Below are positions 2,601 through 28,600 of a stretch of 64,000 nt of DNA, piece by piece. The DNA is from Mustelus asterias. Taxonomy: Eukaryota. The stretch's first letter is position 1. The number at the start of each line of letters is the position of its first letter. The stretch spans positions 21,762,001 to 21,826,000 of the forward strand of contig NC_135808.1 of assembly GCF_964213995.1 (NCBI RefSeq), given 5' to 3'. The position numbers and the translations under genes were made by a program. The notes under the pieces are model-generated. The model worked only from the letters and a program-made list of their open reading frames with translations. It made no database searches and had not been told where the DNA came from.

Positions 2601-2829
2601 ACCCCGTTCAGAACTCCCTAAATAATAACCCTCGGACAGTTCAGTCCTGCCCCTCGGAAAGTTCAGCGCTCCCTCAGTACTTTCCCTCTGACAGTGTGGC
2701 ACTGCCGCAGTGCTGACCTTCGGTCAATGCGACACTCCCACAGTACTGACCCTCAACATGCAGCACTCCCTTAGCACTGATGCTCTGACAGTTGGACACT
2801 CCCTCAATACTTTCAGGTGAACCCCCGGT

Positions 2830-3745
2830 TCAAAAAGGGAGAGGTAAAAATCCGGAAACTATCGGCCAGTTCTCTGTGGGGGGAAGTTGTTGGAATTAAT
2901 CATTGCGGAGGAGATGACTGAACATTTGGAAAAACAAAGCTCAATCCACCATTGTCAGCATGGTTTTATGAAGGGAAAGTCATGCTGGACAAACTTGCTT
3001 GAGTTCTTTGAGAACATAACCAGTAAAGTGGATAATGGGGAAACTGTGGGTGTGGCGTATCGAGACTTCCAGAAGGTGTTTGCCGAGGTGCCGCATAAAG
3101 ACTGATCCAGAAGGTGAGATTGCAGAGGATTGGGGGTAGAGTATGGGATTGGATTGAGGATTGGCTGAGTGACAGAAAACACAGAGTCGGGATAAATATT
3201 ATATATTTCTACTTTGTCTGCCAAAATGGATAGCCTCACACTCATCCACATTAAACTCCATCTGCCAAATTATGACCTATTCCCCGAGCCAATCTGTATC
3301 CATCTGTAAAATCTTTATATCCTCTTCACTGCCTGCATTCCCACCTATTTGAGTATCATTCACAAATTTTGCTATGTTACATTCTGTTCCTCTGGCTGGC
3401 GAAAGTAACGAGTGGGGTGCCACAGGGATCAGTCCTCAGACCTCAACTGTTTACAATCCATACAAATGATCTGCAAGCAGGAACAGAGTGTAACATAGCA
3501 AAATTTGTGAATGATACTCAAATAGGTGGGAAAGCAGGCAGTGAAGAGGATATAAAGATTTTACAGATGGATACAGATTGGCTCGGGGAATAGGTCATAA
3601 TTTGGTAGATGGAGTTTAATGTGGATGAGTGTGAGGCTATCCATTTTGGCAGACAAAGTAGAAAGGCAAATTATTATCGAAAAGGAAAGCAGATTCAAAA
3701 TGCCTCTAGGCAGAGGGATCTGGGTGTCTTTGTTCATGAATCCAC
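2830..3745 (+). mobile_element. Decayed CR1-clade LINE RT fragment with an internal inverted duplication (~3205-3385)
   Basis: Motifs QHGFMKGKSC, DFQK, SGVPQGSVL and MEFNV are present with stops and frameshifts. 3205-3385 is the reverse complement of ~3490-3670. Confidence 0.85.
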
Positions 3746-6020
3746 TCTCTCCCAGAACCTCCCTCCCATGCCAGTTGGAGAAGTCAAAACTAAGACACAG
3801 CTGCTTTCTTTACCAGAGAGTTTATTGAGTTTACAGTCAACACAACTGTACCCGACCAGTGTCCCAGCTATCCCCATTTATAATGTAGAAATACCCATCA
3901 CCAATTTATAATGGAATTGTAATCAAACCTTAAAAATGTGATTGCCATTCCATCTGAACCATGTGATTATTATTAAACTTTAATATGATCGCGATTAAAC
4001 ATTAACCATTTGACTGTCATTGAATATTAACAATGTGATTGTGATTAAATATTAACCATCTGATTGTCATTAAACATGGGATTGTAATTAACCATTAACA
4101 ATCTAATTATCATTAAGCACAAGCATTGCAATTGTGATGTTAATGTTTGAAATGTCAATGTGATTAACAAGACACTGACACCAGGGGTGGTGCTGGGGAT
4201 CAGATCACTCACTCCACCTCTCAGTGAAAGCAGTGAGTATGATTCCGAGCGGCTGTGCAGGTTAAAAATCCAGCCCCAGTAAAGAAACCATGGACATTTA
4301 CAGTTTAATTTACACAGTCTCATATGTAGATCCGCCATCAGTCACTGATTGTCACCTCGAGAAAATTAAAGCTTCCCTGAGTGTCTCATCCGTTCCTCCC
4401 ACTGATTTCTCTGGATTACTGATCAGGACACTGGAGATCACTGGGGGAAGAGAAAAAAATCCATAGTTACAGGAAGAGGAAAACCCAGAAGACACAGAAC
4501 ACCCCCAACAAAACCCATCACAACCCTGACACCTAAAACTGGAGAAAGCTGGAAGAGTTCAGGAAGTGAAGGGGTGAAATTAAAATAGAAATTGGGAAAC
4601 CAAAGAGAGAGTGTGGAAAATACTTGGAAGTAAAATTGAAGAACATGCAATGATGTTTTATCACAAGGAGCAAGAGGGGAACAAAGGAAAGAGTCGGGTC
4701 TATCGGAGACCAAAATGCTAACCTTTGTAAGGAAGCAGAGGATGGGGAAAGGTTCTGAATGAATAATTCACATCTGTTTTCAGAAATCAGGGAGCTGATG
4801 ATAATACAATGATGTAGTTCAGGAAGAGCAGTGTGAATGACAGCATGGGATAAACATTGCAAGAGAGGAACCATTATTGGGTTTGACGTTTTTGAAAGTG
4901 GACAAATCACCAGGTTGTGAACAGACAGGGACACAATGGGCTGAATGGCCTCGCTCTCAATCAGAAGTTTACTTTCATTCAACCTTACACCCAAATAACA
5001 GCAAAACCCATCAGTCCCATTCAACAGAGAAACCAATACCTTCACAAACCTTTGAGGTTCCAGAGGCCTGGAAAATAGCCAATGTTGTTCCTTTGTTTAA
5101 GAAAGGAAGCAGGGATAATCCATGAAGTTATAGATCCGTGAGCCTGGCTTTTTCCAGCATGCAAGTGTCAATTCTAAGGGGGCACAAGTTCAAGTCAAGA
5201 GAGGGAAAGTTTAAGGGAAATGTGCAGGGTAGGTTTTTCACGCAGTGTGTGCTGGGTGCCTGGAACGCACTGCCAGAGGAGTGGTGGAAGCAGGCACATT
5301 AGCAACATTTAAGAGGCATCTGGGTGGGTACATGAATACGGAGGGAATAGAGGGATACGGACCGAATAAGGCCATAAACTTTTTCTTAGTTCAATTAGGG
5401 CACTATGATCAGCACGGGCTTGGAGGGCCGAAGGGCCTGTTCCTGTGCTGTATATTATTTTGGAAAACCCATCAGACCCCCAAAATCCAGCTAAACCCGT
5501 CAGACCCCCAAACACCAGCACAACACATCAGAGCCCCAAACACCAGAAAAACTCATTAGAACCCCAAGACCAGCTAAATCCATCAGATCCCCCAAACACC
5601 AGCTAAACTCCTGAGGTCTACTCCACACCCCAAACATTCAGCAAATGATCAGACTCATCACAAAACACGACTGATGTTAAATCCTGTGGGAATGACAGAC
5701 CCCAGTGGCCAACTTCAGGGAAAACTCTGGGAATTCTGACTTCCTTAAGGAAATTGAGCAGCTTAGCGGAGGCTGTCCAGGGTGAGATGTTTCCGGGTGT
5801 CTCTATACCTCAACAGCCACAATGTCTCCACCCTCAGACTGTCTCCAGAAGGCCAGTCTCAAAGCTCAGTGTTGAATTGGATGAGCTGCTCTTTAGTGAC
5901 GATACAGCGAGAGACAGACACTGAGCTCACATCCCACCCACCAGATTGTACAGCTAAATCCAGCAGGAATATCCCAGTTAGAAGGATCAGCTCCCAATAT
6001 TTATCAACACAGTTCATACC

Positions 6021-9000: not shown

Positions 9001-11463
9001 CAGGATACAGTGGGGGATGTTCCATATCAAATCCATGGACACACAATTATTTCCCACCAATGGTGGTGCCAAGATATATAACACATTGAAGGTTAATATT
9101 TATTTTCCTCTCTCTGTATCCTGGGCCTCAGGCTGTCCTGGGCTGACAGCTCAGCACTGACCCTCACTCCTGTGATCCTGGTCTGAGGCTGGGTCCTCTC
9201 TAACAGTGAGAAACAGTCTTACCGTAAATCACCACCAGCGTCTCCTTCATCCCGCTGTGTTCCACCCGACAGGAATACTCGGCCTGGTCCTCCGGATTAA
9301 ACTCTACCCATTTCCGGATCTGGTAGGTGCTGTCGTGATTGGGTAAGATCCCACTGGACAGAGTCTCATCAATCACCACTCCGTCTCTCCACAGATTCAC
9401 CTCGATGGCCTGAGGGTAAAACCCGGTGACGACACAGGACAGCCGGTTAGAATCACCCAGACTGGTAAAGGACACGACGGGGGCAACTGAGAGAGAAAGA
9501 AAGAGGAGTCAGTCCAGGAACCTTGAGATAGAGAGTCCCGGCATCACCCCCTTCACCGACTCTCACTCCCCCCTCACTCACTGACTCTCACTCCCCCCTC
9601 ACTCACCGACACTCACTCCCCCCTCACTCACCAACTCTCACTCCCCCCTCACTCACCGACTCTCACTCCCCCCTCACTCACCGACTCTCACTCCCCCCTC
9701 ACTCACCGACTCTCAATTCTCTCTGTCCATACTCCAGGTATTTTCTCAGCCACTCGATACACTCCACCTCCAGGTAATGTTTCCATCGCTGAATGATGAC
9801 AGTGTCCCTGTCCCAACTGTTTTTGATGGTCTCCCCCCATGTGACCGACGTCACCCACACCATGTGCTCCTTGTCGAAGCTGAGAAAATCATGTCCATCC
9901 CATCCCCTCTGGTTGAATCCACTCGTGGTCCCATCATCCCTCAGGTCACAGCCAGTCATCAGCTGGTAGACATGGATCCCTGTGGATCAGAAACACAAAC
10001 AGCCAATCAGACACAGTCCCAATGGGCGATCCCACCTGCACAGCCAATCAGAGGCCGCCTCCCTGGAAACAATCCCTCCACACATTCACAGCCAATCACA
10101 TTTCCTGTCACATCTCCAATCGCAGCCAATCAGCCTCTGGCTCTCGGTTCCGGATCCACTCTGGGTTTCTCCTCATTCCCACCTGGATCCCCGGGTGCTG
10201 GGAGAGTGAGCACTCACCTACTGTCTGGTTGGTGCGGGACATGAGCAGTGGAATATCAGCTTTAAAATGCATCTCCTGCTCCTCTGTGAGGATCTTCTTC
10301 CGCTCCCAGGCTGCCGGACCCTCGCTCTCCACCATCCACTGCTCCCGGGGGATCAGCTCCCTCCGATCGCTGTCGTACAAAACAAACTGGACACCGTCCA
10401 CATAACCGACAGCCACAAACTCCGGGAAATCCGGGGTCGAAGTCATTCCCGTGAAGAAATACCGGAGAGAGTGAGAGCCTGAAATAGAGAGAGAGAGAAT
10501 TCAGGATAGACACCCTAAAAACACCAACACACACACACACACACACACAGAGATCAGGGCATGAACCCCAAAACACTGATTCCAAACCGAGAGCAAGACC
10601 TCCACCCAGCCTGGCATTGCCCCTCTCACACCCCATCACTCACTGACCCAGGGTTAATGCCCCAGTACCCAGCCTGGCATTGCCCCTCTCACACCCCATC
10701 ACTCACTGACCCAGGGTTAATGCCCCAGTACCCAGCCTGGCATTGCCCCTCTCACACCCCATCACTCACTGACCCAGGGTTAATGGCCCAGTACCCAGCC
10801 TGGCATTGCCCCTCTCACACCCCATCACTCACTGACCCAGGGTTAATGCCCCAGTACCCAGCCTGGCATTGCCCCTCTCACACCCCATCACTCACTGACC
10901 CAGGGTTAATGCCCCAGTACCCAGCCTGGCATTGCCCCTCTCACACCCCATCACTCACTGACCCAGGGTTAATGCCCCAGTACCCAGCCTGGCATTGCCC
11001 CTCTCACACCCCATCACTCACTGACCCAGGGTTAATGCCCCAGTACCCAGCCTGGCATTGCCCCTCTCACACCCCATCACTCACTGACCCAGGGTTAATG
11101 CCCCAGTACCCAGCCTGGCATTGCCCCTCTCACACCCCATCACTCACTGACCCAGGGTTAATGCCCCAGTACCCAGCCTGGCATTGCCCCTCTCACACCC
11201 CATCACTCACTGACCCAGGGTTAATGCCCCAGTACCCAGCCTGGCATTGCCCCTCTCACACCCCATCACTCACTGACCCAGGGTTAATGCCCCAGTACCC
11301 AGCCTGGCATTGCCCCTCTCACACCCCATCACTCACTGACCCAGGGTTAATGCCCCAGTACCCAGCCTGGCATTGCCCCTCTCACACCCCATCACTCACC
11401 TGCCGACACCTCTCCACACAGAAGGATCAGCTCTATCAGTCCAATTATTGCTGCTTTCCTCAT
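6021..11463 (-). CDS. MHC class I heavy chain, copy A (UAA-lineage-like, probably non-classical), 7 exons, 348 aa, intact
   Basis: Exons on the minus strand: 11400-11463, 10218-10478, 9707-9979, 9223-9486, 6762-6866, 6272-6304, 6021-6067. All introns are GT-AG and phase 1; the total is 1047 nt with no internal stop. Class I hallmarks: [11 protein letters not shown] glycosylation site, alpha2 and alpha3 Cys pairs, TM and Ser-rich tail. Confidence 0.93.
6272..6304 (-). CDS. Copy A exon 6, cytoplasmic (GRGKSDYNPAK)
   Basis: 33-nt exon with the conserved class I cytoplasmic Tyr. Homologs at 38199-38231 and 60265-60297. Confidence 0.85.
6762..6866 (-). CDS. Copy A exon 5, connecting peptide and transmembrane segment
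   Basis: EPKSRSQVAVTVGIVVGVLVLIALIIVAVVIYNKK; 105 nt; AG/GT flanks. Confidence 0.92.
7431..7774 (-). mobile_element. tRNA-derived SINE (shark HE1/V-SINE-like)
   Basis: Box A/B-like head (tggttagcactgctg...gggttcgattcc), central 'gtgtggagtttgcacattctcc' core and CR1-like 3' tail. Confidence 0.85.
8365..9010. repeat. Degenerate ~35-bp repeat (cccaggatacactgggccctgt...gtaatat) in intron 4
   Basis: Recurrent caggatacactggg motif. Paralogous tracts at ~26500-26630, ~35120-35830 and ~53490-53600. Confidence 0.8.
9223..9486 (-). CDS. Copy A exon 4, alpha3 (C1-set Ig) domain
   Basis: LSCVVTGFYPQAIEVNLW...PNHDSTYQ...YSCRVEHSG; 264 nt. Confidence 0.95.
9553..9716 (-). repeat. 25-bp minisatellite spanning the exon 3 donor of copy A (~6 units)
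   Basis: Unit gtgagagtcggtgagtgagggggga on the gene strand. Confidence 0.9.
9707..9979 (-). CDS. Copy A exon 3, alpha2 domain
   Basis: GIHVYQLMTGCDL...WDGHDFLSFD...YLEVECIEWLRKYLEYGQRELRV; 273 nt. Confidence 0.95.
10218..10478 (-). CDS. Copy A exon 2, alpha1 domain
   Basis: [38 protein letters not shown]...MSRTNQTV; 261 nt; canonical splice sites. Confidence 0.95.
10605..11399 (-). repeat. 63-bp minisatellite in intron 1 of copy A (~12.6 units)
   Basis: Near-perfect units starting exactly at the intron 1 GTGAGT donor. Confidence 0.97.
11400..11463 (-). CDS. Copy A exon 1, signal peptide MRKAAIIGLIELILLCGEVSA
   Basis: ATG at 11463, hydrophobic core, CAG|GTGAGT donor. Paralogous to 30810-30873. 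Confidence 0.9.
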
Positions 11464-11559
11464 GTTGGGGGAAACATTTGGAGGAAACTCTTTTTCAAAG
11501 AAAGGCCATTTTCTCAACTCACTCCTTCTGTCTTTTCCTGTTCACGCTGAGCCTCAATC

Positions 11560-11734: not shown

Positions 11735-12642
11735 AGTGGGAATTCTGTTCACAAACAGAACTTATAAAGACACAGACTCAATTTACATGAATAATGGTTG
11801 GAATGCGAATACTTACAACTAATCCAGTCTTTAAGAAACAAAACAATGGGAGTGGAGAGAGCATCAAGACAGGCTAAAAAGATGTGTATTGTCTCCAGAC
11901 AAGACAGCCAGTGAAACTCTGCAGGTCCACGCAACTGTGGGAGTTACAAATAGTGTGACATAAACCCAATATCCCGGTTGAGGCCGTCCGCGTGTGTGCG
12001 GAACTTGGCTATCAGTTTCTGCTCAGCGACTCTGCGCTGTCGTGTGTCGCGAAGGCCGCCTTGGAGAACGCTTACCCGAATATCAGAGGCCAAATGCCCG
12101 TGACCGCTGAAGTGCTCCCCAACAGGAAGAGAACAGTCTTGCCTGGTGATTGTCGAGCGGTGTTCATTCATCCGTTGTCGCAGCGTCTGCATAGTTTCCC
12201 CAATGTACCATGCCTCGGGACATCCTTTCTTGCAGCGTAACAGGTAGACAACGTTGGCCGAGTTGCAAGAGTATGTACCGTGTACCTGGTGGATGGTGTT
12301 CTCACGTGAGATGATGGCATCTGTGTCGATGATCCGGCACGTCTTGCAGAGGTTGCTGTGGCAGGGTTGTGTGGTGTCTTGGTCACTGTTCTCCTGAAGG
12401 CTGGGTAGTTTGCTGCGGACAATGGTCTGTTTGAGGTTGTGCGGTTGTTTGAAGGCAAGAAGTGGGGGTGTGGGGATGGCCTTGGCGAGATTTTCGTCTT
12501 CATCAATGACATGTTGAAGGCTCCGGAGGAGATGCCGTAGCTTCTCCGCTCCGGGGAAGTACTGGACAACGAAGGGTACTCTGTCCACTGTGTCCCGTGT
12601 TTGTCTTCTGAGGAGGTCGGTGCGGTTTTTCGCTGTGCCACT

Positions 12643-12679
12643 CACCTGAAGAAGGGGCTTAGAGCCTCGAAAGCTTGTG
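12643..12679 (+). ncRNA. Minimal type I hammerhead ribozyme (inverted pLTR copy)
   Basis: cac ctgaaga a ggggc ttaga gcctc gaaa gct t gtg. Confidence 0.75.
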
Positions 12680-13392
12680 TGGCTTTTGCTACCAAATAAA
12701 CCTGTTGGACTTTAACCTGGTGTTGTTAAACCTCTTACTGTGTTTACCCCAGTCCAACGCCGGCATCTCCACATCAAGAATAGACACAAACAGGTTGAGA
12801 AACGGCCTCAACATGGGAATTGTCTAAATAGATAAATAGGGCTGGTGACATCATCAGTTGCCGGGTAGAATCAGCTGAAAGGAGTTTGATACAGTGACAG
12901 AGGGAAGGACATTCAGAACAGGAGCAGGTCTGATCTAACTATTCACTCACAGTCATAGAGATATACAGCACAGAAACAGGCCATTCGACCCAACTCGTAC
13001 ATGCCCACCAGGCTTTCTTTACTGAACCAGTCGCATTTGCCTGCATTTGGCCCATACTCCTCTAAACCTTTCACATCTATGTACCTGTCCAAATTGATTT
13101 TAAATGTTGTAATTGTACCCACGTTAGCCACCTCTTCTGGCCTCTCATGCCATATACACACCACCACCACCTGTGTGAAAACATTGCCCCTTTTAGTCCC
13201 TTTTTATACTTCTTCTCATCTTTAACCTATAGCCTTTAGTTTTAGACTCGTCTACCCTGGGGAAAAGACCTTGTCTCTTTACCTTATCTATGTTCCTCAT
13301 GATTTTATAAACCTCTATAAGGTCATCACATTCTCCTACGCTTCAGGGAAAGAAACCTTCTTCAACGTCCACTGCACCACAAATTTTGGTGC

Positions 13393-14108
13393 TGTTGTCG
13401 GTAAAAAAAACCTCTGACACTATTAGTGGATCAAAATGCAGGTTTATTTTCACAATTGTGGGAGAGGTCCAATTCCTAACATGGTCTCGGGCCTCTCCTC
13501 GAATATGAGTTAAGGGCAAACATTTATACATCCCGGTTCCCGCCCTTAATTACATTCCCCAATTCTCCAGGATGGCTGTCACTGTTCCTCATTCATTGTG
13601 GGATCCTTGCTGCATTGGCACTTTCTTCTGTTGTGTAGTTTGTTCAATCGTGGCAATCTCCAAGGCCGCGATTGTTTCTGTTCCATCCCTCTACGTTACG
13701 CACGGCCTTGAAGCAACATCACAAATTTTGCACAAACAGGTAATTAAAACACAACTAAAACACAACTATATCAGTTTAAAATAGTATAGATGCATAGCAT
13801 ATAATGAATGTATAAATCTTTTGTTATACAAAGACAGAAGGCATACATGTCAGCTTCACCGTATTAAACAAAAGTACATGAAAATGGAGACTGTTTCGCT
13901 TATAGGCTGCGTTAACCACATTCCTGAATACGATAGGCTGGAGACAATAGGGATAGCTGTTCCTCTTATCTGGTCTGGATGCACCAAAACAATCAATTCT
14001 AACAAAAACAATGAATTAGACAATACTTCTCACGAATCTCTTAAGTATTACAGAGGTGAGTCTCAATGCTGAAGTGTTCCAAGATTCATTAACCCATTCC
14101 CGTCTTCA
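13393..14108 (-). mobile_element. ERV 3' LTR
   Basis: PPT AAAAGGGGGAAAA (14109-14121) is followed by TG. On the minus strand there is TATAAAT at ~13522-13528 and AATAAA at 13443-13448, ending ...ACAACA. The left boundary is approximate. Confidence 0.7.
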
Positions 14109-15559
14109 TTTTCCCCCTTTTGGTCGGGTGCCAGGTCCAAACATGGCACCTATGACCAACTCAGAACCACATGTTATCGGCAAATGGGCCTCGCTCCTTC
14201 GTTGGGAGGTCTGCCCCTCCACCTGTACACTTGCGACCGTCATAATTCGCGCTGTTACTGTTTTGCAATAGGCGTTCAATAATGCCATACAAACACAGCA
14301 AGTAATTACAATTACAATTAATACAATCAATCCATGCATCAGGTATGAACCCCACGACCCAAACCATTGCCCCAGCCAGCCCAGGTGGTTATAATTGTGA
14401 TATTGGTTCCCGTTATCCTGTATTGTTTTTGCCACGTGTTTAATATGATCTGCCAAGCGAGTTATATTCTCCGAAGCATCGGGAATATACGTACAGCATT
14501 CAGAGCCAACTATGGCACATGTTCCTCCTTGGGAGGCTGGCATATAATCGAGTGCTAATCGGTTCTGTAACGCCACAGTCCGAATAGCTACGACCACTGC
14601 TGATATTTCAGAGACGGCTGTGCTCACCTCCTCGAACCCATTTTTAGCCTCATTTGCAATTTTCTCTTGGGTTGAGGCCATCCGTATAAGTTCCTGTGCT
14701 GCCTTTGCCATCCCAAAAAATGGGTAAGCTATCATGAAGAATCGTTCTGTCTCACTAATGGCTCGCTTAGCCCTAAGCAGGTGTATCTCGGGGTGGTCCC
14801 ATAAGTCAGTGTAATGGTGAACATAAGGCACCACATATGCCAAATAACATGATCCTGTCCAATTCCAGGGAAGCCACGGATAGGCATTGTTTCCACAGAC
14901 AAAATAGTTACCATTATATGCAGTCACCTCGCTTATATAAGCGGAGGAGAGGCTAACCGGGACGGTGGCTATGGGGCACTGGATTGTGATCTGTATCATG
15001 GCCTCAGTGTCATCCGTGATATCAACCTGCTGTATACAGTAGCTACGGCCAACAGGTATGGTTCCATTTCTTATCAGGCAGATAACTCCCCTTTGTTGAT
15101 TTTTCACAATGAAGTCAGGTGGGGAATCTGATCTGTCTTAGTTGGGTTGGTCATGTTTCTTAAAGGACGATAAAGTGCACCCTCCACCCCCTAGCCTTGA
15201 AACAACATCGCTGTTGCTGATACCCTGCATAGTGGTACCCGATGGGTTTTTAAATGTCAGTTTCCTTCCTGGGTTCCATTCTGATTTAAAACCCATTCAA
15301 TTACTTCTGGAGCTGATAAAGGGATAGGAAATAAGGGAATTCCTCCCTTTCCTCCATGCATGGGAATGTGTGAACAGACCCAGCACTTGCTCAGATTTGA
15401 TTGTGATGCATACAGATAAGACATATACACAAAGGTGTTCATACAATGGACAGAGTCATCGTGACAGAGATGATCATTGTGCTTCATTCCTAACTCCTCA
15501 TAATACAATTTATACTTTCCCGCTATGGCTAACAGGGCCAGGGTCGTGAGTATCAGCAT
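14106..15559 (-). pseudogene. env: Endogenous retrovirus env (gamma-type envelope), disrupted
   Basis: Signal peptide MLILTTLALLAIAG, CWVC (CxxC), furin site RAKR, immunosuppressive domain LQNRLALDY, CX6CC (CAIVGSECC) and TM helix. Stops and a frame change lie between 15257 and 15107. Confidence 0.9.
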
Positions 15560-15976
15560 GAAAAGAATCTTATCACTTACTAATATCCCGCGCGACCGTT
15601 ATACAACGGTCCAAAGGCTATAATCGCCCGCGTGCAACTTCCCGCGAAACCGTTCAGCTTGCTTGGAGGTCAGTTGTTGTTTGTTTATATCTGCAATTGG
15701 AGTGCGGTAAACCACTGTTAAGCTATTGCCTGTGTGTGTGTGTGTGTGTGTGTGACATGCCTGGGCATGCCCCTGCCGGCCCTGCCTGAGACTCCTCCCC
15801 CCCTGGTCCAGGTATAAAGGTGACTGCTCCCAACCCCCCTGCCTCAGTCTCTGGACTAGTTCATCAGCATGGGTGTGCTCCAAGTCTTTTGCTAATAAAA
15901 GCCTATTTGTTCTTGCATACAAACTAGTCTTTGCTTGATTGATGGCGCATCAATTTTATTCGCAAAATGTTTTGGG

Positions 15977-18900
15977 ATGGAGCAGATACTAAAACCCGAT
16001 AGATTAGAATTGAATCCTCAAGCCGTAGGAGCCTCTAACAGCTTTGATCACTGGCTGCGATGTTTCGAAACTTTCCTCACCGCCGCCTCCTCCATCATCC
16101 GGACCGAAACCGACAAACTACACGTGCTCCACGCCCGGGTAAGCGATCAAGTATTCTCGATGATTAGAGACGCTGAAACTTACGAGGATGCGATTGAACT
16201 TTTAAAAGGCCAGTACAACAAACAGACTAATGTAATCTACGCCAGACATCTTCTGGCTACTCGCAGACAACAGCCAGGAGAATCGGGCGATCAATTCTTG
16301 CGTGCGATGCGAGCACTTGGCAGGGCCTGCAACTGCAAGGCCATAACAGCTGCCCAAAACACTGAGGACTTAATCAGAGATGCCTATGTCATGGGTATCA
16401 GGTCAAACTATATCCGACAACGACTGCTGGAACAGGGTGAGCTGGACCTACAAAAGACTGTAGCGCTTGCCGACTCGTTAGATGTGGCCTACCGTAATCT
16501 CGAGGCCTACACCCCCGACCACGGGGGCGCATCATGGATGCCGCAGTCGCCGCCACCTCTGTACTCGGGAGGGCTGCAGGCCTACACCACGCCACGTCCC
16601 ACTAATGACGCGACCGCTGCGGCAGTCTCTGGAGGCCCGAAGTGCTACTTCTGCAGCCTGGGGAAGCACCCCCGACAACGCTGCCCGGCGAAGGATGCGA
16701 TCTGCTCCGGGTGTGGAAAGAAGGGCCATTACACTAAGGTATGCAGGGCAAAGTCGACCTCCAAGCCCAGTAGCACCGCGTGCGACCCATGGGGGCTGCC
16801 ATCTTGGGCACCGGTAGCTGCGTGTGAGCCATGCGGGCCGCCATCTTGGACGCCATTAGCCGCGTGTGGGCCGTGCGGGCCGCCATCTTGGATGCCGTCA
16901 GCCACGTGTGGGCCATGCGGGCCACCATCTTGGATGCCATCAGCCACGTGTGGGCCGTGCGAGCCGCCATCTTGGACGCCATCAGCCGCGTCGCAAAATC
17001 CAACAGTGGCTTCGGTTACGCTGGACCAATCCAGGCCTCACCAACTCACCAGGTCCATGATGGACATCGAGGTAAACGGTCGCACTACAAACTGTTTATT
17101 TGACTGTGGGAGTACAGAGAGCTTTATTCACCGTCACACAGTGAGTCGCTACGCCCTTTCAGTACTGCCAGTGAAGAAAACGATCTCCATGGCTTCAAAG
17201 TCCCACTCGGTGGATGTCCTCGGGAACTGCGTGGCGACCCTGACTGTACGGGGCACAGTGTACAAAAACTTCAGGCTCCTCATGCTGCCACAACTCTGCG
17301 CTGCCGTACTCCTGGGGCTAGATTTCCTGTGTCACCTTAAGAGTGTCACCATGGAGTATAATGGGCCTTTTCCCCCACTCTCTGTTTGCAATCACCAGTT
17401 CTTAGATCGCCCACCGTGCACCACCTGCAGCCTCTCATGCCTTAAAGTCGTCCCTCCCTCACTGTTTGAAAATCTCACCCCCGATTGCAAGCCCATCGCC
17501 ACCAAGAGCAGACGGTACAGTGCTGGAGACAGGGCTTTTATCAGGTCTGAAGTACAACGGCTCCTAGGGGAGGGGATCATTGAGGCCAGTACCAGCCCCT
17601 GGAGAGCCCAAGTGATGCGCATCAATTGGACACGAGGCACTAAGCTTCGGTAAAAGAAGGCTTTTATTAACTAACAATGGAACTAACAGACCTTTAACAC
17701 ACTATCCCAGACTGAAGAGGTCCCGCCCGAGCAGGGGGTCTTATACCTCTCCCAGGAGGCGGAGCCCGACTGGGATGTGCCACAACAGTAACAACCACAG
17801 GTGTATCAATCCCACCCTAGCCCAACAACAACATTAGAACAACCCAACAACAACATTAGAACAATCCCACAGTGGGAACCAACGATGGTTCACCACACCA
17901 AGTAGGAGTTGTTAAGACTGGGGAGAAACATCGCATGGTCATTGAGTACAGTCAGACCATAAACCGCGACATGCAGCTGGACGCGTACCCCCTTCCCCGC
18001 ATATCTGACATGGTTAATCAGATTGCGCAATATCGGGTGTTCTCCACCATCGACTTAAAATCTGCTTACCACCAACTCCCTATCCGCCCGGAGGACCGCC
18101 AATATACTGCCTTCGAGGCGGATGGCCGCCTCTATCACTTCCTTAGGATCCCCTTCGGCGTCTTGGTTTTCCAGCATGAGATGGACCGAATGGTAGACCA
18201 GAATGGGTTGCGGGCCACCTTCCCATACCTAGATAACGTCACCATCTGCGGCCATGATCAGCAGGACCACGACGCCAACTTCCACAACTTCCTCCACACC
18301 GTCACACTCCTAAATCTGACCAATAATAAGGAGAAGTGCGTATTCCGCACACGCCGCCTTGCCATCCTTGGTTGTGTTGTGGAAAACGGGGTCATCGGTC
18401 CCGATCCCGACCGCATGCGTCTCCTCCTGGAACTTCCCCTCCCCACCAGCCTCAAAGCCCTGAGGAGATGCCTGGGCTTCTTCTCATATTACGCCCAGTG
18501 GGTCCCAATTATGCGGATAAAGCCCGTCCGCTCATCAAATCCACCTCTTTTCCCCTGACGGCAGAGGCCTGCCTGGCCTTCGACCGTATCAAAGCAGACA
18601 TCGTGAAGGCCACGATGCACGCTGTAGACGAATCCATCCCGTTCCAGGTGGAGAGCGATGCATCTGACTTCGCCCTAGCCGCCACCCTTAACCAGGCGGG
18701 CAGACCCATGGCCTTCTTCTCATGAACCCTCCAAGGCCCTGAAATTCAACAGTCCTCTGTCGAAAAGGAGGCCCAAGCCATAGTGGAAGCTGTACGGCAC
18801 TGGCGTCACTACTTAGCTGGTAAACGATTCACCCTACTCACGGACCAACGGTCAGTTGCATTCATGTTTAACAACACGCAGCCGGGCAAGATCAAAAATG

Positions 18901-20198
18901 ATAAAATATTGAGATGGAGAATCGAGCTTTCCACCTACAATTACGACATCTTATACCGGCCCGGGAAGCTCAATGAGCCCCCAGACGCCCTGTCCCGGGG
19001 AATATGTGCCAGCGCACAAATAGACCAATTGCAGACTGTCCACAACGACCTCTGCCACCTGGGGATCACCAGGTTTTTTCACTTCATTAAAGCCCGTAAC
19101 CTGCCCTACTCCATTGAGGAAGTCAGGTCTATAACCAGACACTGCCAGGTCTGCGCAGAGTGCAAGCCGCACTTCTATCGGCCAGACAGAGCACACCTCA
19201 TAAAGGCCACCCTAAGCGTCGACTTCAAAGGCCCCCTCCCCTCTTCTGACCACAACATATACTTCCTCAACGTCATTGACGAATATTCACGTTTCCCCTT
19301 TGCTATTCCCTGCCCGGATATGACCTCGGCCACGGTCATCAGGGCCCTGCACAGCCTCTTCACCCTGTTCGGTTTCCCTAGCTATATCCATAGCGACCGG
19401 GGATCCTCCTTTATGAGTGATGAGCTGCGACAGTACCTGCTCTCCAAAGGCATAGCCTCGAGTAGGACCACCAGCTACAACCCCAGGGGAACGGACGGGT
19501 AGAGAGGGAGAACGCGACAATCTGGAAGGCCGTTTTACTAGCTCTGAGGTCTAAAGGTCTTCCAGTCATCCGCTGGCAAGAGGTCCTCCCTGATGCGCTA
19601 CACTCGATTAGATCACTCCTTTGCACAGCTACCAATGCTACCCCTCACGAAAGAATGTTTGTTTTCCCCAGGAAGTCCTCCTCTGGGACCTCACTACCGT
19701 CGTGGCTGATGTCCCCAAGCCCTGTCCTGCTCCGGAAGCACGTGAGAACCCATAAGTCGGACCCCCTGGTCGAAAGGGTCCAGCTCCTCCACGCCAACCC
19801 CCAATGTGGCGTACCCCGACGGGCGGGAGGAGACGGTCTCCATTCAAGACCTGGCACCCGCAGGTGCCCCAGGGACCACGACGACCCACAACCCCACACC
19901 CTCAACCCCCGTATACAGCACGCCTGAGCCCCAGGAGCCGCCACCACGCACCTGACAATCGGAAGGTGCCCCAGAGACCATGACGACCCACAACCCCAAA
20001 CGCCCAACCCCCGTATACAGCACGCCTGAGCCCCAGGAGCCACCACCACGCACCCGACAATCGGAAGGGACTACAAACGACTCGAGCGACTATGGCCTGG
20101 CGCCTGAACCAACACCGCGGCCACCGGAACCGACACCACAACTGACACTACGGCGGTCGCAGTGGCAGATCAAGCCCCCAGAGAGACTGAATTTGTAA
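15977..20198 (+). pseudogene. gag-pol polyprotein of the Gypsy element, interrupted
   Basis: ATG at 15977 (MEQILKP). The frame rejoins across the solo LTR (SPWRAQ|VGVVKTG). Frameshifts or stops near 18510, 18723 and 19495. Confidence 0.85.
17613..17897 (-). mobile_element. Solo LTR of a related Gypsy family inserted into pol
   Basis: Minus strand reads TGTGGTGAACC...AATAAAAGCC...GATGCGCATCA. 5-bp TSD ccaag at 17608-17612 and 17898-17902. Confidence 0.9.
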
Positions 20199-20328
20199 TT
20201 CTGTAAATATCGTTCCACCCACCTCACCCCCGCCAGACTCTTTTTTAAAAGCAGGGGGTGAATGCAGTAAACCACTGTTAAGCTTATTGCCTGTGTGTGT
20301 GTGTGTGTGTGTGTGTGTGACATGCCTG

Positions 20329-20678
20329 ACATGAGTGGAGGGAGCATTAAGCACAGGTTACAGAGATGTGTATTGTCTCCAGACAGGACAGCCAGTGAGA
20401 TTCTGCAGATTCTGTGCTGAATGCTCCCTCCACTCACATTATCTGTCTCTTTAAGACCTGGTTGGTTGTAGGGATTCGCATTCTAATCAGTATTCTGTAA
20501 CTTGATTTTGTGTCTCTGTGTCCTGCTTGAGAGCAGATTTCCACTCCATCTGACGAAGGAGCAGCGCTCCGAAAGCTAATGGTATTTGCTGCCAAATAAA
20601 CCTGTTGGACTTTAACCTGGTGTTGTTAAAACTCTTACTGTGTTCACCCCAGTCCAACGCCGGCATCTCCACATCATG
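20329..20678 (+). mobile_element. Penelope 3' fragment with inverted 5' part and hammerhead
   Basis: Homologous to the other pLTR/3'UTR copies. The inversion junction is near 20408. Confidence 0.85.
20546..20582 (+). ncRNA. Minimal type I hammerhead ribozyme
   Basis: CCAU-CUGACGA-A-GGAGC(agc)GCUCC-GAAA-GCU-A-AUGG: intact core and stems I and II, palindromic AGCU stem III. Confidence 0.82.
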
Positions 20679-20689
20679 ACTACCATTTC

Positions 20690-21590
20690 CCACAGCCAGC
20701 GGTCTATTCCTTGATCTATCAAAGATTCATCCATCTCCACTTTAAATACTTCAAATAACCCAGCCTCCAACCCCCCCCCCCCCCTTGGGGCAGAGGATTC
20801 CAGAGATTCACCACACTCTATGAGAAGAAATTTCTACGCATCTCAGTTTGAAATGACCGACCCTTCATCTTGCAGCTATATCCCCATATTTGAGACTCTC
20901 CCCCGAGTGAAAACATCTCACCCTGTCAAGCCCCCTCAGATCTTATATGTTTGAATGAGGTCACCACTCACTCTTCTAAACCCCAAGGAATACAGACCCA
21001 GACTATTTAGTCTGTCTTGATAGGACAACCCTGTCATTCCAGAAATTAGCCTGGTGATGAATGGACTGCCTCCACTGTTACTATATCCGTTGTAGGTAAG
21101 GGGACCAAAACTATACACAGTATTTCAGGTGAGGCCTCACCAACACCCTATGCAATTGGAACAAAACCTCCCTATTTTTAAACTCTAATCCCTTTGCAAC
21201 AAAGACCAAAATGCCGTTTGCTTTCTTAACTACCTGTTGGACCTGATTGCTAGCTTTTTGTGATTAATGCACTAAAAAAACTAAATCCTTCTAAACTTCA
21301 CTCACCTGCAGTCTCTCTCCATTTAGATAATAGTCTACATTTTGATTACTTCTGCCAAAGTGCATGACCTCACACTTCCCCCATTAAACTCCATTTGCCA
21401 GGTTTTTGCCCAGTCACCCAATCTATCTTTATCCCATTGCAGATTCACAATATTCTCATCATGTCCCTGCCCTTCCACCAATCTTAATATCAGCAGCAAA
21501 TTTGGAAACCTGACATTCTGTTGCTTCATCCATGTCATCAGTATAAACAGGGAACAATTGTGGGCCAAGAACTGATCCGTGCGGTACTTG
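20690..21590 (-). mobile_element. CR1 LINE 3' fragment
   Basis: WQMEFN, LGLYSLGFRR and GDLIQTYKI motifs on the minus strand. Confidence 0.8.
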
Positions 21591-22574
21591 AGGAAGAGTT
21601 GTATATTAGTTTTGAACCTGAATCACTTTAATTGACATTTCGAATCCCAGAGTTGTTATGGGGCAGAAGGAAGCCATTTCACCTATTTTATTTGCACCAG
21701 CTCTGCAAACGGGCATTGTGGTTTAGCGCCTTTTAAACATTTAATTATCTGTGATTCAATGGCAATACTATCACTGAATCCCCCACTGTGAACATCCTGG
21801 GGGTTGCCATTGACCAGAAACTGACCTGGACAAGCCACAGAAACACTGTAGCTGCAAGAGTGGGTCACAGGCTGGGAATTTTGTGGAGAGTTTAAATTTT
21901 AAGTTCATGCATTAGTATTGCAAGTAGGCTTACATGAACACTGCAATGAAGTTACTGTGAAATGATGTTGGGATACTAATGCAAGTGTGATTGAATGAGT
22001 GTCATTCTGTTACGTCTTAAAATGTTCCCCACCACAGTGGTGTTGCCCCTCGCCTGTGGCATCAGTTTTGTACTGAAGACTTTACAGAGGCAGGAAGTGA
22101 AAAATAAATCTCATTTATTGTAGAAATTGGAACAATGTTAAAAATTGCAGAAATAGATTCTGGTTTGAAAAACAGAAACCAAACATCCTCACACCATCAA
22201 TATATCTCTGGGACACAGACTCCCCGACCCCCAACAATCCATTCCTCCCAATCCCACCCTGTGGGTTCAGCACAACAGCTCCTTCCCAATTTACCTGCAC
22301 CAGTGTAAACCCCGGGGATTGTCCCAGGGAGCGAACCCCCTCGTTCCACAGCCCACCCACCTCACAGTGAAAGCAATGAGTGAATCGGCCTTGAGTGAAA
22401 TGGATTCCTAAACTCGACACAGGTTAAACAGGGCAGATCAGAAGAGATTAAAACTTCCAGCTGCAAACAGAGCAATCCCTGATAAAACATCCCAGTTCCA
22501 TTTACAGAGTTCCATATGTAGAGCTTGAATCCGTCAGTCGCTGTTACCTCCATGAAATCACATGGCAGCATCTG

Positions 22575-23275
22575 TGAGCAAAACCCATCGGACCGCCAAA
22601 CACCAGCTAAACCCATCAGACCCCCAAACACCAGCTAAACGCATCAGAGCCCCAAACACCAGCAAAACCCATCAGACCGCCAAACACCAGCTAAACCCAT
22701 CAGAGCCCCAAACACCAGCAAAACCCATCAGACCCCCCAAACACCAGCAAAACCCATCAGAGCCCCAAACACCAGCTAAACCCATCAGAGCCCCCAAACA
22801 CCAGCAAAACCCATCAGACCCCCAAACACCATCTAAACCCATCAGACCCCCAAACACCAGCTAAACCCATCAGACCCTCAAACACCAGCTAAACCCATTA
22901 GACCCCCAAACACCAGTTAAACCCATCAGACCCCCAAACACCAGCCAAACCCATCATAGCCCCAAACAGCAGCTAAACCCATCAGATCCCGCAAACACCA
23001 GCTAAGCCCATCAGACCCCCAAACACCAGCTAAGCCCATCAGACCCCCAAACACCAGCTAAACCCATCAGACCCCCAAACACCAGCCAAACCCATCAGAG
23101 CCCCAAACAGCAGCTAAACCCATCAGATCCCGCAAACACCAGCTAAGCCCATCAGACCCCCAAACACCAGTTAAACCCATCAGACCCCCAAACACCAGCT
23201 AAACCCATCAGACCCCCAAACACCAGCTAAACCCATCAGACCTCCAAACACTAGCTAAACCCATCAGATCCGCGC
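22575..23275. repeat. 28-bp minisatellite (accagctaaacccatcagacccccaaac)
   Basis: About 25 units here. Only a few units at the paralogous sites ~5460-5610 and ~39270-39345. Confidence 0.92.
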
Positions 23276-23314
23276 CCCAAACATCCAGAAAACGATCAGA
23301 CATATCGCGCAATA

Positions 23315-24799
23315 TAACTGATGTTAAATCCTGTGGGAGTGACACAGCTCAGTGACCAACTTCAGGGAAAACACTTGGGAATTCCGACTTCCTTAAGGAA
23401 ATTGAGCAGCTTAGCGGAGGCTGTCCAGGGTGAGATGTTTCCAGATGTCTCGACACCTCAACACCCACAATGTCTCCACCCTCAGACTGTACAGGAGCAG
23501 CCGTCTCCAGAAGGCCAGTCTCAAAGCTCAGTGTTGGATTGGATGAGCTGCTCTTTAGTGACGATACAGCGAGAGACAGACACTGAGCTCACATCCCACC
23601 CACCAGATTGTACAGCTAAATCCAGCAGGAATATCCCAGTTAGAAGGATCAACTCTGCATATTCTGAGCTCCTGCAACAGAATGCTGAACTCTTCACTCC
23701 CTCCACAATCTAAACCCCTCAACTCCAGCCCTGACCATAGACCTTCATTCCAGCCCTGACCACAGACTCTCACTCCAGCGCTGATCTGAGACCCTCACTC
23801 CCACCCTGACTCGAGACCCTCATTCATGCTCTGACTTGAGACCCTCACTCCCGCCCTGAACCGAAACCCTCATTCCCACACTGGGGTGAGACCCTCAGGT
23901 TGGAATTGTCCCGTCCCGCCTGCCATGGGAATTGTAGCGGGCAGGGGAGGACAATGCAAAGGTCTGTTGATCTTGGGTGGGATTTTACGGTCCTGGGGTG
24001 AGCCCGGCCAGAAACTCCCACGCTCAATCTCACTCCGAGGCGAGAGCCTCACTCTCACTCTGACGCAAGGCGCTCACACTGGCCCGAGACCCTCACTCCC
24101 ACTGGCCCGAGACCCTCACTCCCACTGGCCTGAGACCCTCACTCCTACTGGCCTGAGACCCTCACTCCCACTGGCCTGAGACCCTCACTCCCACTGGCCT
24201 GAGACCCTTACTCCCACTGGCCCGAGACCCTCACTCCCACTGGCCTGATACCCTCACTCCCACTGGCCTGAGACCCTCACTCCCACTGGCCTGATACCCT
24301 CACTCCCACTGGCCTGATACCCTCACTCCCACTGGCCTGAGACCCTCACTCCCACTGGCCTGAGACCCTCACTCCCACTGGCCTGGGACTCTCACTCCCA
24401 CTGGCCTGGGACCCTCACTCCCACTGGCCTGGGACCCTCACTCCCACATTGACCCAAAACCCTTACAGATATCCTGAACTCCTCATTCAATCTGAGACCC
24501 TTCCCACAATTCTGTGACACTCTCCCTTTATCATGAGCCCCTCACCCTCCCTATCCCAACCCTGCGACTCTCCCACCCACTCTGTGACCCCCACACCAAC
24601 CTGAGACCCACAGCCTGAGCCACCCCCACCCTGGAATACTCTCCCACAATCCCTCCCCCCAGTGAGGAGCTGCTCTTTTCCCTCCAATTCCTACCTTTCT
24701 TGTTGTCGATGACGACAGCCACAATGATGAGAGCGATGAGCACGAGGACCCCGACCACAATCCCGACAGTAACAGCAACCTGGGAGCGAGACTTTGGTT
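23315..24799 (-). pseudogene. MHC class I fragment, copy D: TM exon (24695-24799) plus post-stop region, lacking exons 1-4 and 6-7
   Basis: The TM exon matches copy A except Y->D (VIDNKK). 23315-23651 matches 5670-5990. Intron-4 homology extends to ~26630. Confidence 0.88.
24060..24450. repeat. 23-bp minisatellite in intron 5 (cccactggcctgagaccctcact)
   Basis: Tandem units. Related tracts at ~6410-6520 and ~59720-60160. Confidence 0.9.
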
Positions 24800-26631: not shown

Positions 26632-28600
26632 GGTGTGGAGATGCCGGCGTTGGACTGGGGTAAGCACATTAAGAAGTCTCACAACACCAGGTTAAAGTCC
26701 AACAGGTTTATTTGGTAGCACAAGCCACTAGCTTTCGGAGCATTGCCCCTTCATCAGGTGAGTGGGAGTTCTGTTCACAAACAGGTCGTGGAGATGCCGG
26801 CGTTGGACTGGGGTAAACACAGTAAGAAGTTTAACAACACCAGGTTAAAGTCCAACAGGTTTATTTGGTAGCACAAGCCACTAGCTTTCGGAGCATTGCC
26901 CCTTCATCAGGTGAGTGGGAGTTCTGTTCACAAACAGGTCGTGGAGATGCCGGCGTTGGACTGGGGTAAACACAGTAAGAAGTTTAACAACACCAGGTTA
27001 AAGTCCAACAGGTGTATTTCGTAGCAAAAACCCTTTTGCTACCAAATAAACTGTTGGACTTTAACCTGGTGTTGTGAAACTTCTTACAAACAGGACATAC
27101 ATAGATACAAACTCAATTTACAAAATAATGGTTGGAATGCGAGTCTTTACAGGTAATCAAGTCTTAAAGGTACAGACAATGTGAGTGGAGAGAAGGTTAA
27201 GCACAGGTTAAAGAGATGTGTATTGTCTCCAGCCAGGACAGTTAGTGAGATTTTGCAAGTCCAGGCAAGTCATGGGGGTTACAGATAGTGTGACATGAAC
27301 CCAAGATCCTGGTTGAGGCCGTCCTCATATGTGCGGAACTTGGCTATCAGTTTTGCTCAGCGATTCTGCGTTGTCGTGTGTTGTGGAGGCCGCCTTGGAG
27401 AATGCTTATCCGAATATCAGAGGCTGAATGTCTGTGATTGCTGAAGTGTTCCCCAACAGGAAGAGAACAGCCTTGCCTGGTGATTGTCGAGCGGTGTTCA
27501 TTCATCCGTTGCCGTTGCATCTGCATGGTCTCCCTAGTGTACCATGCCTCGGGATATCCTTTCCTGCAACGTATCAGGGAGACAACGTTGGCCGAGTTGC
27601 AAGAGTATGTACCATGTACCTGGTGGATGGTGTTCTCACGTGAGATTATGGCATCCATGTCGATGATCCAGCACATCTTGCAGAGGTTGCTGTGGCAGGG
27701 TTGTGCGGTGTCGTGGTCACTGTTCTCGTGAAGGCTGGGCAGTTTGCTGCGGACAATGGTCTGAGGTTGTGCGGTTGTTTGAAGGCAAGAAGTGGGGGTT
27801 TGGGGATGGTCTTGGTGAGATGTTTGTCTTCATCGATGACATGTTGAGGCTCCGGAGAAGTTGTCATAGTTTCTTTGCTCCAGGGAAGTACTGGACGACG
27901 AAGGGTACTCTGTCCATTGTGTCCCGTGTTTGTCTTCTGAGGAAGTCGTTGCGGTTTTTCGCGGTGGCACGCCGGAACTGTCGATCGATGAGTCGAGCGC
28001 CATATCCTGTTCTTATGAGGGCATCTTTCAGCGCCTGTAGGTGTCTGTTACGATCCTCCTCATCTGAGCAGACCCTGTGTATATGGAGGGCTGGTCTGTA
28101 GGGGATGACTTCTTTAACGTGTTTCGGGTGGAAGCTAGAGAAGTGGAGCGTCGTGAGGTTACCAGTGGGCTTGTGGTCGAGTGAAGTGCAGAGGTCACCG
28201 GCCTTGATGGAGATGCGTGTCCAAGAATGCAACCAATTCCGGAGAGTAGTCCATGGTGAGTCTGATGGTGGGATGGAACTTGTTGATGTCATCATATGGT
28301 TGTTTCAGTGATTGTTCGCCATGAGTCCAAAGGAAGAAAATGTCATCGATGTATTTAGTGTATAGCGTTGGTTGAAGGTCCTGAGCATCCCACGATGCTC
28401 CACTTCTCCAGCTTCCACTCTAAACATGTTAAAGAACCCATCCCCTACGGACAAGCCCTCCGTATTCACAGGATCTGCTCAGATGAGGAGGATCGCAACA
28501 GACACCTCCAGACACTGAAAGATGCCCTCATAAGAACAGGATATGGCGCTCGACTCATTGATCGACAGTTCCGGCGTGCCTCAGAAGACAAACACGGGAC
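26632..28600 (-). mobile_element. Composite Penelope element: tandem 153-bp pLTRs, 3'UTR, decayed GIY-YIG and RT C-terminus, inverted 5' segment
   Basis: pLTR repeats at 26632-27030 with hammerheads at 26726-26760 and 26879-26913. ORF remnants at 27347-28295. 28387-28600 is an inverted copy. Confidence 0.9.

Follow-up and report, generated by a model that had tools for sequence, protein, structure and literature searches.

The Gypsy element in this stretch of shark DNA is a dead, non-chromoviral (Mag-like) Ty3/gypsy copy whose primer-binding position pairs with a 14-nt stretch of its own long terminal repeat (LTR), and its sequence indicates that the family is likely to be self-primed in the manner of Tf1. 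The complementarity and its exact position, the lack of a tRNA-type primer site, and a covariation particular to each family, seen in 28 entries (26 loci on metagenome contigs and two shark families), are direct observations. Self-priming without a tRNA site was the core idea of a first-pass annotation of the window (the whole 64,000-nucleotide stretch that was analyzed), and the covariation of the pairing in the shark families and in the 26 relatives argues strongly for it.

Structure of the element in the window

The decayed Ty3/gypsy element occupies positions 15703-20328 on the + strand. We refer to the family of this host element as family 1 and to the younger sister family, a solo LTR of which is inserted at 17613-17897, as family 2. 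The parts of the element are as follows:

15703-15952 (+): 5′ LTR of family 1, TG...CA, 250 nt; start taken from the 3′ LTR remnant after the polypurine tract, end from the related solo LTR end
15813-15818 (+): TATAAA box, predicted promoter; conserved island between the family-1 and family-2 LTRs
15844-15850 (+): Inr-like TCAGTCT, 33 nt past the TATA box, predicted start at A 15846; TCAGTC in both families
15887-15900 (+): candidate self-primer TTTTGCTAATAAAA, with the AATAAA(A) poly(A) signal at its 3′ end
15901-15952 (+): rest of R and U5, beginning GCC; putative template of strong-stop minus-strand DNA; its first bases are predicted to pair in a stem adjoining the primer helix
15953 (+): lone A separating U5 from the primer-binding position
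15954-15967 (+): primer-binding position TTTTATTCGCAAAA, complementary to 15887-15900; exact 14-mer in 23 of 29 family copies
15977-17612 (+): gag (zinc knuckles), protease, and start of the reverse transcriptase (RT) gene; PF13975, PF13650, PF08284
17613-17897 (-): solo LTR of sister family 2, TG...CA, 285 nt, within the RT gene; matches 99-100% identical
17898-20190 (+): remainder of RT, RNase H, and integrase, with several broken frames; PF00078, PF17919, PF17917, PF17921, PF00665
20247-20262 (+): polypurine tract AAAAGCAGGGGGTGAA; the GGGG(A/T)GAA/TG junction is common to relatives
20263-20328 (+): 3′ LTR remnant, 66 nt, truncated by another insertion; compared by eye with 15703-15770

The first-pass annotation had placed the end of the LTR correctly at 15952, and only its start is slightly corrected here, to 15703 (TGCGG...), on the basis of the polypurine tract and the 3′ LTR remnant (20247-20328). 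The end is secure because the family-2 solo LTR shares the terminal GCGCATCA, identical to that of the window LTR, and because unrelated DNA follows CA immediately in the solo and 3′ LTR copies of family 2.

The gag frame is open from the ATG at 15977 up to the solo-LTR insertion, on either side of which CCAAG is duplicated (17608-17612 and 17898-17902). Both the window copy and a family-2 copy show the Ty3/gypsy (Metaviridae) order of gag, protease, RT, RNase H, and integrase in Pfam searches. In the window copy, integrase ends in a proline-rich tail without a chromodomain; likewise no chromodomain (PF00385) is detected in family-2 pol at E-values up to 0.01, nor is one present among the precomputed domains of the 120 listed protein relatives of family-2 pol. 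By the chromodomain, then, the element falls outside the Tf1/sushi chromoviruses.

Several further features of the window were noted. Within the open gag-protease frame, four 42-nt tandem units that are 79-82% alike (16776-16991, +) encode a repeated 14-residue motif rich in Cys, Pro, and Trp. Just upstream of the Gypsy element, an ORF of 333 aa (14106-15107, -) carries a TLV_coat retroviral envelope domain (E = 3.6e-18) and is probably a fragment of an endogenous retrovirus. The insertion that truncates the 3′ LTR (20329-20700) opens with a long inverted repeat (GAGTGGAGGGAGCATT ... AATGCTCCCTCCACTC), and its segment 20580-20682, probably a short interspersed repeat, recurs at 12680-12782 (93%). 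Direct repeats that are ~90% alike and 15.3 kb apart (11938-12782 and 27273-27970; families D4, D7, D10, and D11) may bound one large element, or they may come from a local duplication enclosing the Gypsy copy. There are also four satellite-like tandem arrays, at 10478-11533 (period 63 nt), 22525-23361 (28 nt), 23981-24509 (23 nt), and 26635-27093 (153 nt).

Pairing between the LTR and the primer-binding position

As first annotated, the LTR ends in CA at 15952 with no TGG next to it: The sequence reads ...GGCGCATCA and then A at 15953. Where a tRNA-type primer site would begin with TGG beside U5, the window copy has CA-A-TTTTATT.... ARAGORN finds no tRNA in the window, and Rfam gives no match over 15600-16100. 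The sole TGG of the leader overlaps the gag ATG (15976-15978); it was considered as a primer site and rejected because the distance from U5 to the gag ATG is 53 nt in the sister family rather than 24 nt, as in the window copy.

The reported complementarity holds: 15954-15967 is the reverse complement of 15887-15900 at 13 of 14 positions, the sole mismatch being T 15893 opposite C 15961. The paired LTR segment is, as described, the region of the poly(A) signal, with AATAAA at 15894-15899. When the LTR was shuffled by mononucleotides, a match of 13/14 to the 14-mer arose in one of 20,000 shuffles.

We searched the 3.68-Gb genome for further copies. The LTR and gag start of family 1 gave 3,499 first-look candidates, and all 40 of those scored were 92-100% identical to the query; for the family-2 LTR, all 40 scored genomic matches were 99-100% identical. 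Pairing in family 1 was assessed at 30 fetched loci, 29 of which were scored and one of which had no gag start motif. The pair ...GCGAATAAAA / TTTTATTCGC... is perfect (14/14) in 14 of these 29 copies; a further 12 have 13 Watson-Crick pairs (three of them with G.U as the 14th), and three have 12 pairs. Since 18 of the 29 copies carry G in place of T 15893, which gives 14/14 pairing, the mismatch in the window is a private change of the window copy and one other locus. At that locus (L002; G000:C8:23703030-23706429), which shares a contig with the window copy at a distance of 1.9 Mb, the family-1 LTR and gag start are 99% identical to those in the window; it looks more like the product of a segmental duplication than an insertion of its own.

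Family 2 keeps the pairing with different letters. Its LTR reads ...TGTTAGTTAATAAAA followed by GCC..., and after the 5′ LTR come A and then TTTTATTAACTAACA; TGTTAGTTAATAAAA and TTTTATTAACTAACA form 15/15 Watson-Crick pairs in all 11 junctions. The two families differ at several places, and at these both sides of the helix are altered together. This is the covariation that the first-pass annotation had proposed to look for, with the family of the solo LTR included. At L062, contigs from two runs of one sample (X1 and X2) join position 464 to 4575, so that the family-2 LTR end meets the base that precedes the start of the LTR, at single-copy depth. The joint may be an LTR-LTR junction; the assembly was searched for one, as a means of locating the first base of minus-strand DNA, and gave no matches.

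Covariation among distant relatives

The named protein relatives of family-2 pol are from animals (Trichuris, Narcine, and Palaemon). From an alignment of nine family-2-related proteins we obtained 79 loci on metagenome contigs. These were examined in two ways, with a search anchored on the gag start and with an unanchored scan that looked for short inverted repeats spaced by 25-95 nt, and the architectures found by the two agree. The 28 entries scored (26 metagenome loci and the two shark families) are interrelated, and several come from one assembly, so that the counts given below are counts of sequences and not of independent events.

All follow one design: an LTR stretch ending in AAA, then RCC, 31-70 nt, the LTR end CA, one base, and then a sequence that pairs perfectly with the stretch. 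In 25 of the 28 entries the stretch runs into RCC, and in 26 the site is preceded by CA plus A. At all five loci with both LTRs complete, the 3′ LTR ends at this CA and unrelated DNA comes next. In none of the 28 entries does TGG stand at U5 or beside it.

Counted from the junction, the uninterrupted Watson-Crick run within an entry's own pair is 9-18 bp long, with a mean of 14.3 bp. When stretches and sites are combined across families, the mean over 756 combinations is 4.5 bp, and runs of at least 9 bp occur in only 14 of these combinations, all between visibly related families. Each of helix positions 4-13 is occupied by two to four types of Watson-Crick pair. Over positions 1-11, 307 of 308 cells are Watson-Crick, the one exception being an A.C; there is no G.U. 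Past position 15 the pairing is at chance level (14, 9, and 8 of 28 cells at positions 16, 17, and 18). Two findings named in advance as fatal to self-priming, a TGG-initiated primer site in relatives and the loss of complementarity across the family, thus failed to appear: The relatives have no such site, and the pairing covaries in the two shark families and in the 26 relatives. Nor did the third, a match of the 14-mer to a tRNA fragment, turn up in the ARAGORN search of the window or the Rfam search of 15600-16100.

One locus (L071) captures a coordinated change: The stretch has a G-to-T substitution in both LTRs, and the primer site has the matching C-to-A. A site that takes its sequence from the primer would be expected to show such a double change. 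The family of L071, which is invertebrate-like, also includes L069, L070, L072, L073, L078, L081, and L088. On three short metagenome contigs (L087, L100, and L105) the LTR, primer site, and gag start recur after the 3′ LTR, which fits assembled tandem or circular forms, or a collapse of the two LTRs; on L087 the primer-site word occurs twice, 56 nt apart.

RNA structure and the poly(A) signal

The helix is A/U-rich and weak, with a duplex energy of -14 kcal/mol in intact copies and -8.1 kcal/mol in the window copy. The leader of the window copy folds no better than its shuffles (z = -0.24), and the helix is missing from the minimum-energy fold of 15846-15972. For family 2, the leader folds weakly better than shuffles (z = -1.97). 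Thermodynamics contributes little to the case for self-priming. In 22 of the 28 entries, by comparison with 6.7 expected from simple shuffles, a hairpin is predicted to begin at RCC and abut the helix; in family 1, GCC would pair instead with GGC or AGT near the U5 end. This hairpin recalls the U5-IR stem required by Tf1, reportedly described by Lin and Levin in 1998.

The paired stretch has AATAAA or ATTAAA at its 3′ end in 17 of the 28 entries. The other 11 end in noncanonical hexamers (GTTAAA, GATAAA, TTTAAA, AGTAAA, TGAAAA, and TTAAAA). Inspection by eye of the three GTTAAA entries showed that L075 and L098 have AATAAA ~30 nt downstream, outside the helix, and that L076 has only AATAAG. 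The first-pass annotation had also suggested that the hairpin might mask the AATAAA of the 5′ LTR. This does not stand as a general purpose of the pairing: Because 11 of the 28 entries are noncanonical and L075 and L098 carry their canonical signal beyond the helix, masking is at most a by-product.

Transcript start and alternative explanations

TATAA(A/G) and TCAGTC form conserved islands, at standard spacing, in the otherwise diverged LTRs of families 1 and 2; the Inr motif is YYANWYY. In family 1 and family 2, respectively, the TATA box lies 74 and 70 nt and the Inr-like motif 41 and 37 nt upstream of the paired stretch. Going by this conserved TATA/Inr pair, the primer may be internal, as the first-pass annotation had proposed (~40-55 nt past the transcript start). 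The sharp 5′ limit of the pairing fits a short primer equally well. Family 1 has no TATA-like motif ~30 nt ahead of the stretch, and in the relatives we find a TATA neither ~30 nt nor ~70 nt upstream. Among the sequencing runs that contain the family-2 LTR/gag stretch, none is on record as RNA. The four runs with this stretch are DNA-like, with short contigs that also include single-copy flanks and a depth of ~22, and their contigs show no transcript starts, ends, or poly(A) tails.

These data bear on how closely the shark families follow Tf1, which uses the first nucleotides of its transcript, as the first-pass annotation had stated, its primer being the first 11 bases (PMC7175516, in excerpt). 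If the scheme were exactly the same here, the transcript would start at ~15886-15887, the primer would be its first 14 nt, and the TATA/Inr pair would play no part in it or would belong to another transcript. The sharp 5′ limit of pairing in every family is what one expects if the primer ends there, plus-strand transfer would need no extra step, and the relatives lack a TATA ~70 nt upstream of the stretch; yet both shark families keep TATAA(A/G) and TCAGTC at standard spacing farther upstream, and family 1 has no TATA-like motif where this start would call for one. We regard the exact Tf1 scheme as a serious contender, although we lean slightly away from it.

The remaining alternatives deny that the element primes itself. 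The pairing could be a regulatory or packaging structure only, one that hides the 5′ poly(A) signal or cyclizes or dimerizes the genome, with something else as the primer. HIV-1 hides its 5′ poly(A) signal in a hairpin, which is a precedent, 17 of the 28 paired stretches contain AATAAA or ATTAAA, and a partner present only downstream of the 5′ LTR would tell the 5′ signal from the 3′ one. We nevertheless consider a purely structural role unlikely, given the 11 noncanonical hexamers and the two of three GTTAAA entries with a canonical signal outside the helix, the lack of any other primer site (with no TGG by U5 and leaders as short as 24 nt), and a helix that always begins one base from U5 and has no G.U in 308 cells. 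Masking and priming are compatible roles, and masking may be a by-product. A host RNA resembling the LTR stretch, such as a tRNA fragment or another small RNA, is a very improbable primer. Half-tRNA primers are known from some copia lineages (PMC6317226, in excerpt), and mosquito elements of the Mag lineage have tRNA-Leu/Ser sites (PMC3286476); here, however, nearly every family has a site of its own, in each case a match to that family's LTR, and a conserved host RNA could not follow such changes; no site begins with TGG, and neither the tRNA search of the window nor the Rfam search of 15600-16100 gave a candidate. Least credible of all is a chance likeness of low-complexity TTTT-N6-AAAA words inherited by descent. 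It is true that 8 of the 14 matches come from T4...A4 in both words, and descent alone would make the pairing common to the copies of one family. Against this, 13/14 was reached in a single one of the 20,000 shuffles, the sister family and 26 distant relatives pair with different letters, and the cross-family control contradicts it.

A model for self-priming

Self-priming from the LTR stretch thus remains our preferred reading. A position one base from U5, the lack of any other site, and a family-specific match are together the marks that have led relatives of Tf1 to be classed as self-primed. Under this model, the R stretch would anneal just downstream of U5 and close a loop of 31-70 nt. The element's RNase H would then cut after ...AAA, before the RCC that opens the small hairpin abutting the helix, and the new 3′ OH would be extended over the single A, U5, and distal R, to give a strong-stop DNA of ~53 nt in the window copy. 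This DNA would move to the 3′ end of the RNA by means of the ~20 nt that separate the cut from the poly(A) site. Plus-strand synthesis would turn the RNA primer back into DNA, and the site would in this way be rewritten from the LTR stretch in every cycle.

Such rewriting would explain why the two stretches match perfectly and constantly. The complete lack of G.U pairs and the double change in L071 fit a site copied from the primer, and fit less well a helix kept by selection alone. An internal primer would carry a cost: The ~40-nt 5′ tail complicates plus-strand transfer, and a second cut or the removal of a flap has to be assumed in addition.

Comparison with known elements

Tf1 (PMC7175516) and Tf2 (PMC5341516) are established cases of self-priming that involves cleavage by RNase H, as excerpts of these sources state. 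The self-primed chromoviruses Tf1 and Tf2 of Schizosaccharomyces pombe and Tj1 of S. japonicus resemble the shark families in having no tRNA site and, after U5, a site that pairs with RNA of their own LTR (PMC7175516, PMC5341516, PMC4600332, all in excerpt). The same excerpts describe a required structure by the helix and a primer freed by the element's RNase H; in the shark clade, AAA followed by RCC and the abutting hairpin are a possible counterpart. As in self-priming of the Tf1 type, the shark site is complementary to RNA derived from the element's own LTR, and it is family-specific. A difference from Tf1 is that the 3′ end of the stretch falls in the poly(A)-signal region; the stretch is also predicted to lie ~40 nt inside the transcript. 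The shark clade, known here from sequence alone, has a helix of 9-18 bp and, unlike the Tf1 group, an integrase without a chromodomain.

Beyond these yeasts, self-priming has been described for Tf1/sushi chromoviruses of fungi and vertebrates (sushi-ichi) and predicted for Tcn1 of fungi and moss and for the copia elements TAR, Houba, and Osr-1 of plants; in these groups too it was deduced from complementarity between LTR and primer site (PMC6317226, in excerpt). They are chromovirus or copia lineages, unlike the shark clade, and in the literature searched we found no statement that the primer of sushi, Tcn1, or TAR is the poly(A)-signal stretch. In a full-text search of the literature, with some subscription papers beyond reach, there was no description of self-priming for this clade or of a poly(A)-signal primer. 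Butler et al., in 2001, are said to be the cited source on predicted self-priming, vertebrates included. To our knowledge, self-primed reverse transcription is proven at the bench for Tf1 and Tf2 only; for their relatives among the chromoviruses, and for a few lineages in plants, it has been deduced from sequence.

In the retroviral poly(A) hairpin of HIV-1, the AAUAAA of the 5′ R is base-paired as well. That hairpin is local and forms at both ends of the RNA, whereas the partner here lies beyond U5, at the primer position.

In build, the shark families resemble the Mag group (mag, SURL, and Jule; Mag A and Mag C), which is likewise animal-wide and likewise has elements of ~4.5-5 kb, short LTRs, and no chromodomain. 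The LTR ends of the relatives (...AYAACA and TGT...) fit the integrase-recognition motifs of Mag A and Mag C (Benachenhou et al. 2013, PMC3601003), and it is from this build and these end motifs that we take the label Mag-like. In Mag A the LTRs show a clear AATAAA and lack a conserved TATA box (PMC3601003). Thirteen mosquito families of the Mag lineage have sites for tRNA-Leu, tRNA-Ser, or tRNA-Arg (PMC3286476), and primer sites for tRNA-Leu or tRNA-Ser of this kind are absent from the shark families and their relatives; because the mosquito members have tRNA sites, the mode of priming would differ within the wider Mag group.

Implications

We tentatively propose a fuller picture, one that may well fail in some of its parts: that an animal-wide, non-chromoviral clade of Gypsy elements does without tRNA primers, that a single R stretch acts as poly(A) signal, primer, and 5′ mask, that it is excised from the interior of the transcript where AAA meets the RCC hairpin, and that the primer site is rewritten in each cycle. 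The very young family 2, whose LTR copies are 99-100% alike, offers material for a direct look at transcript ends and DNA intermediates.

If a large animal Gypsy clade does prime itself with its poly(A)-signal stretch, independence from host tRNAs would be far commoner than has been assumed. Annotation pipelines that require a tRNA site would miss or mislabel such elements; in one tRNA-based search for primer sites, 361 of 1512 elements were left unassigned (PMC13524379, in excerpt). For the cleavage of RNA duplexes by RNase H there would be a second natural substrate to study, one whose sequence context is clear. Should the fuller picture hold, these elements would have a self-correcting pair of primer and primer site, and theirs would be a second form of self-priming, mechanistically distinct from that of Tf1.
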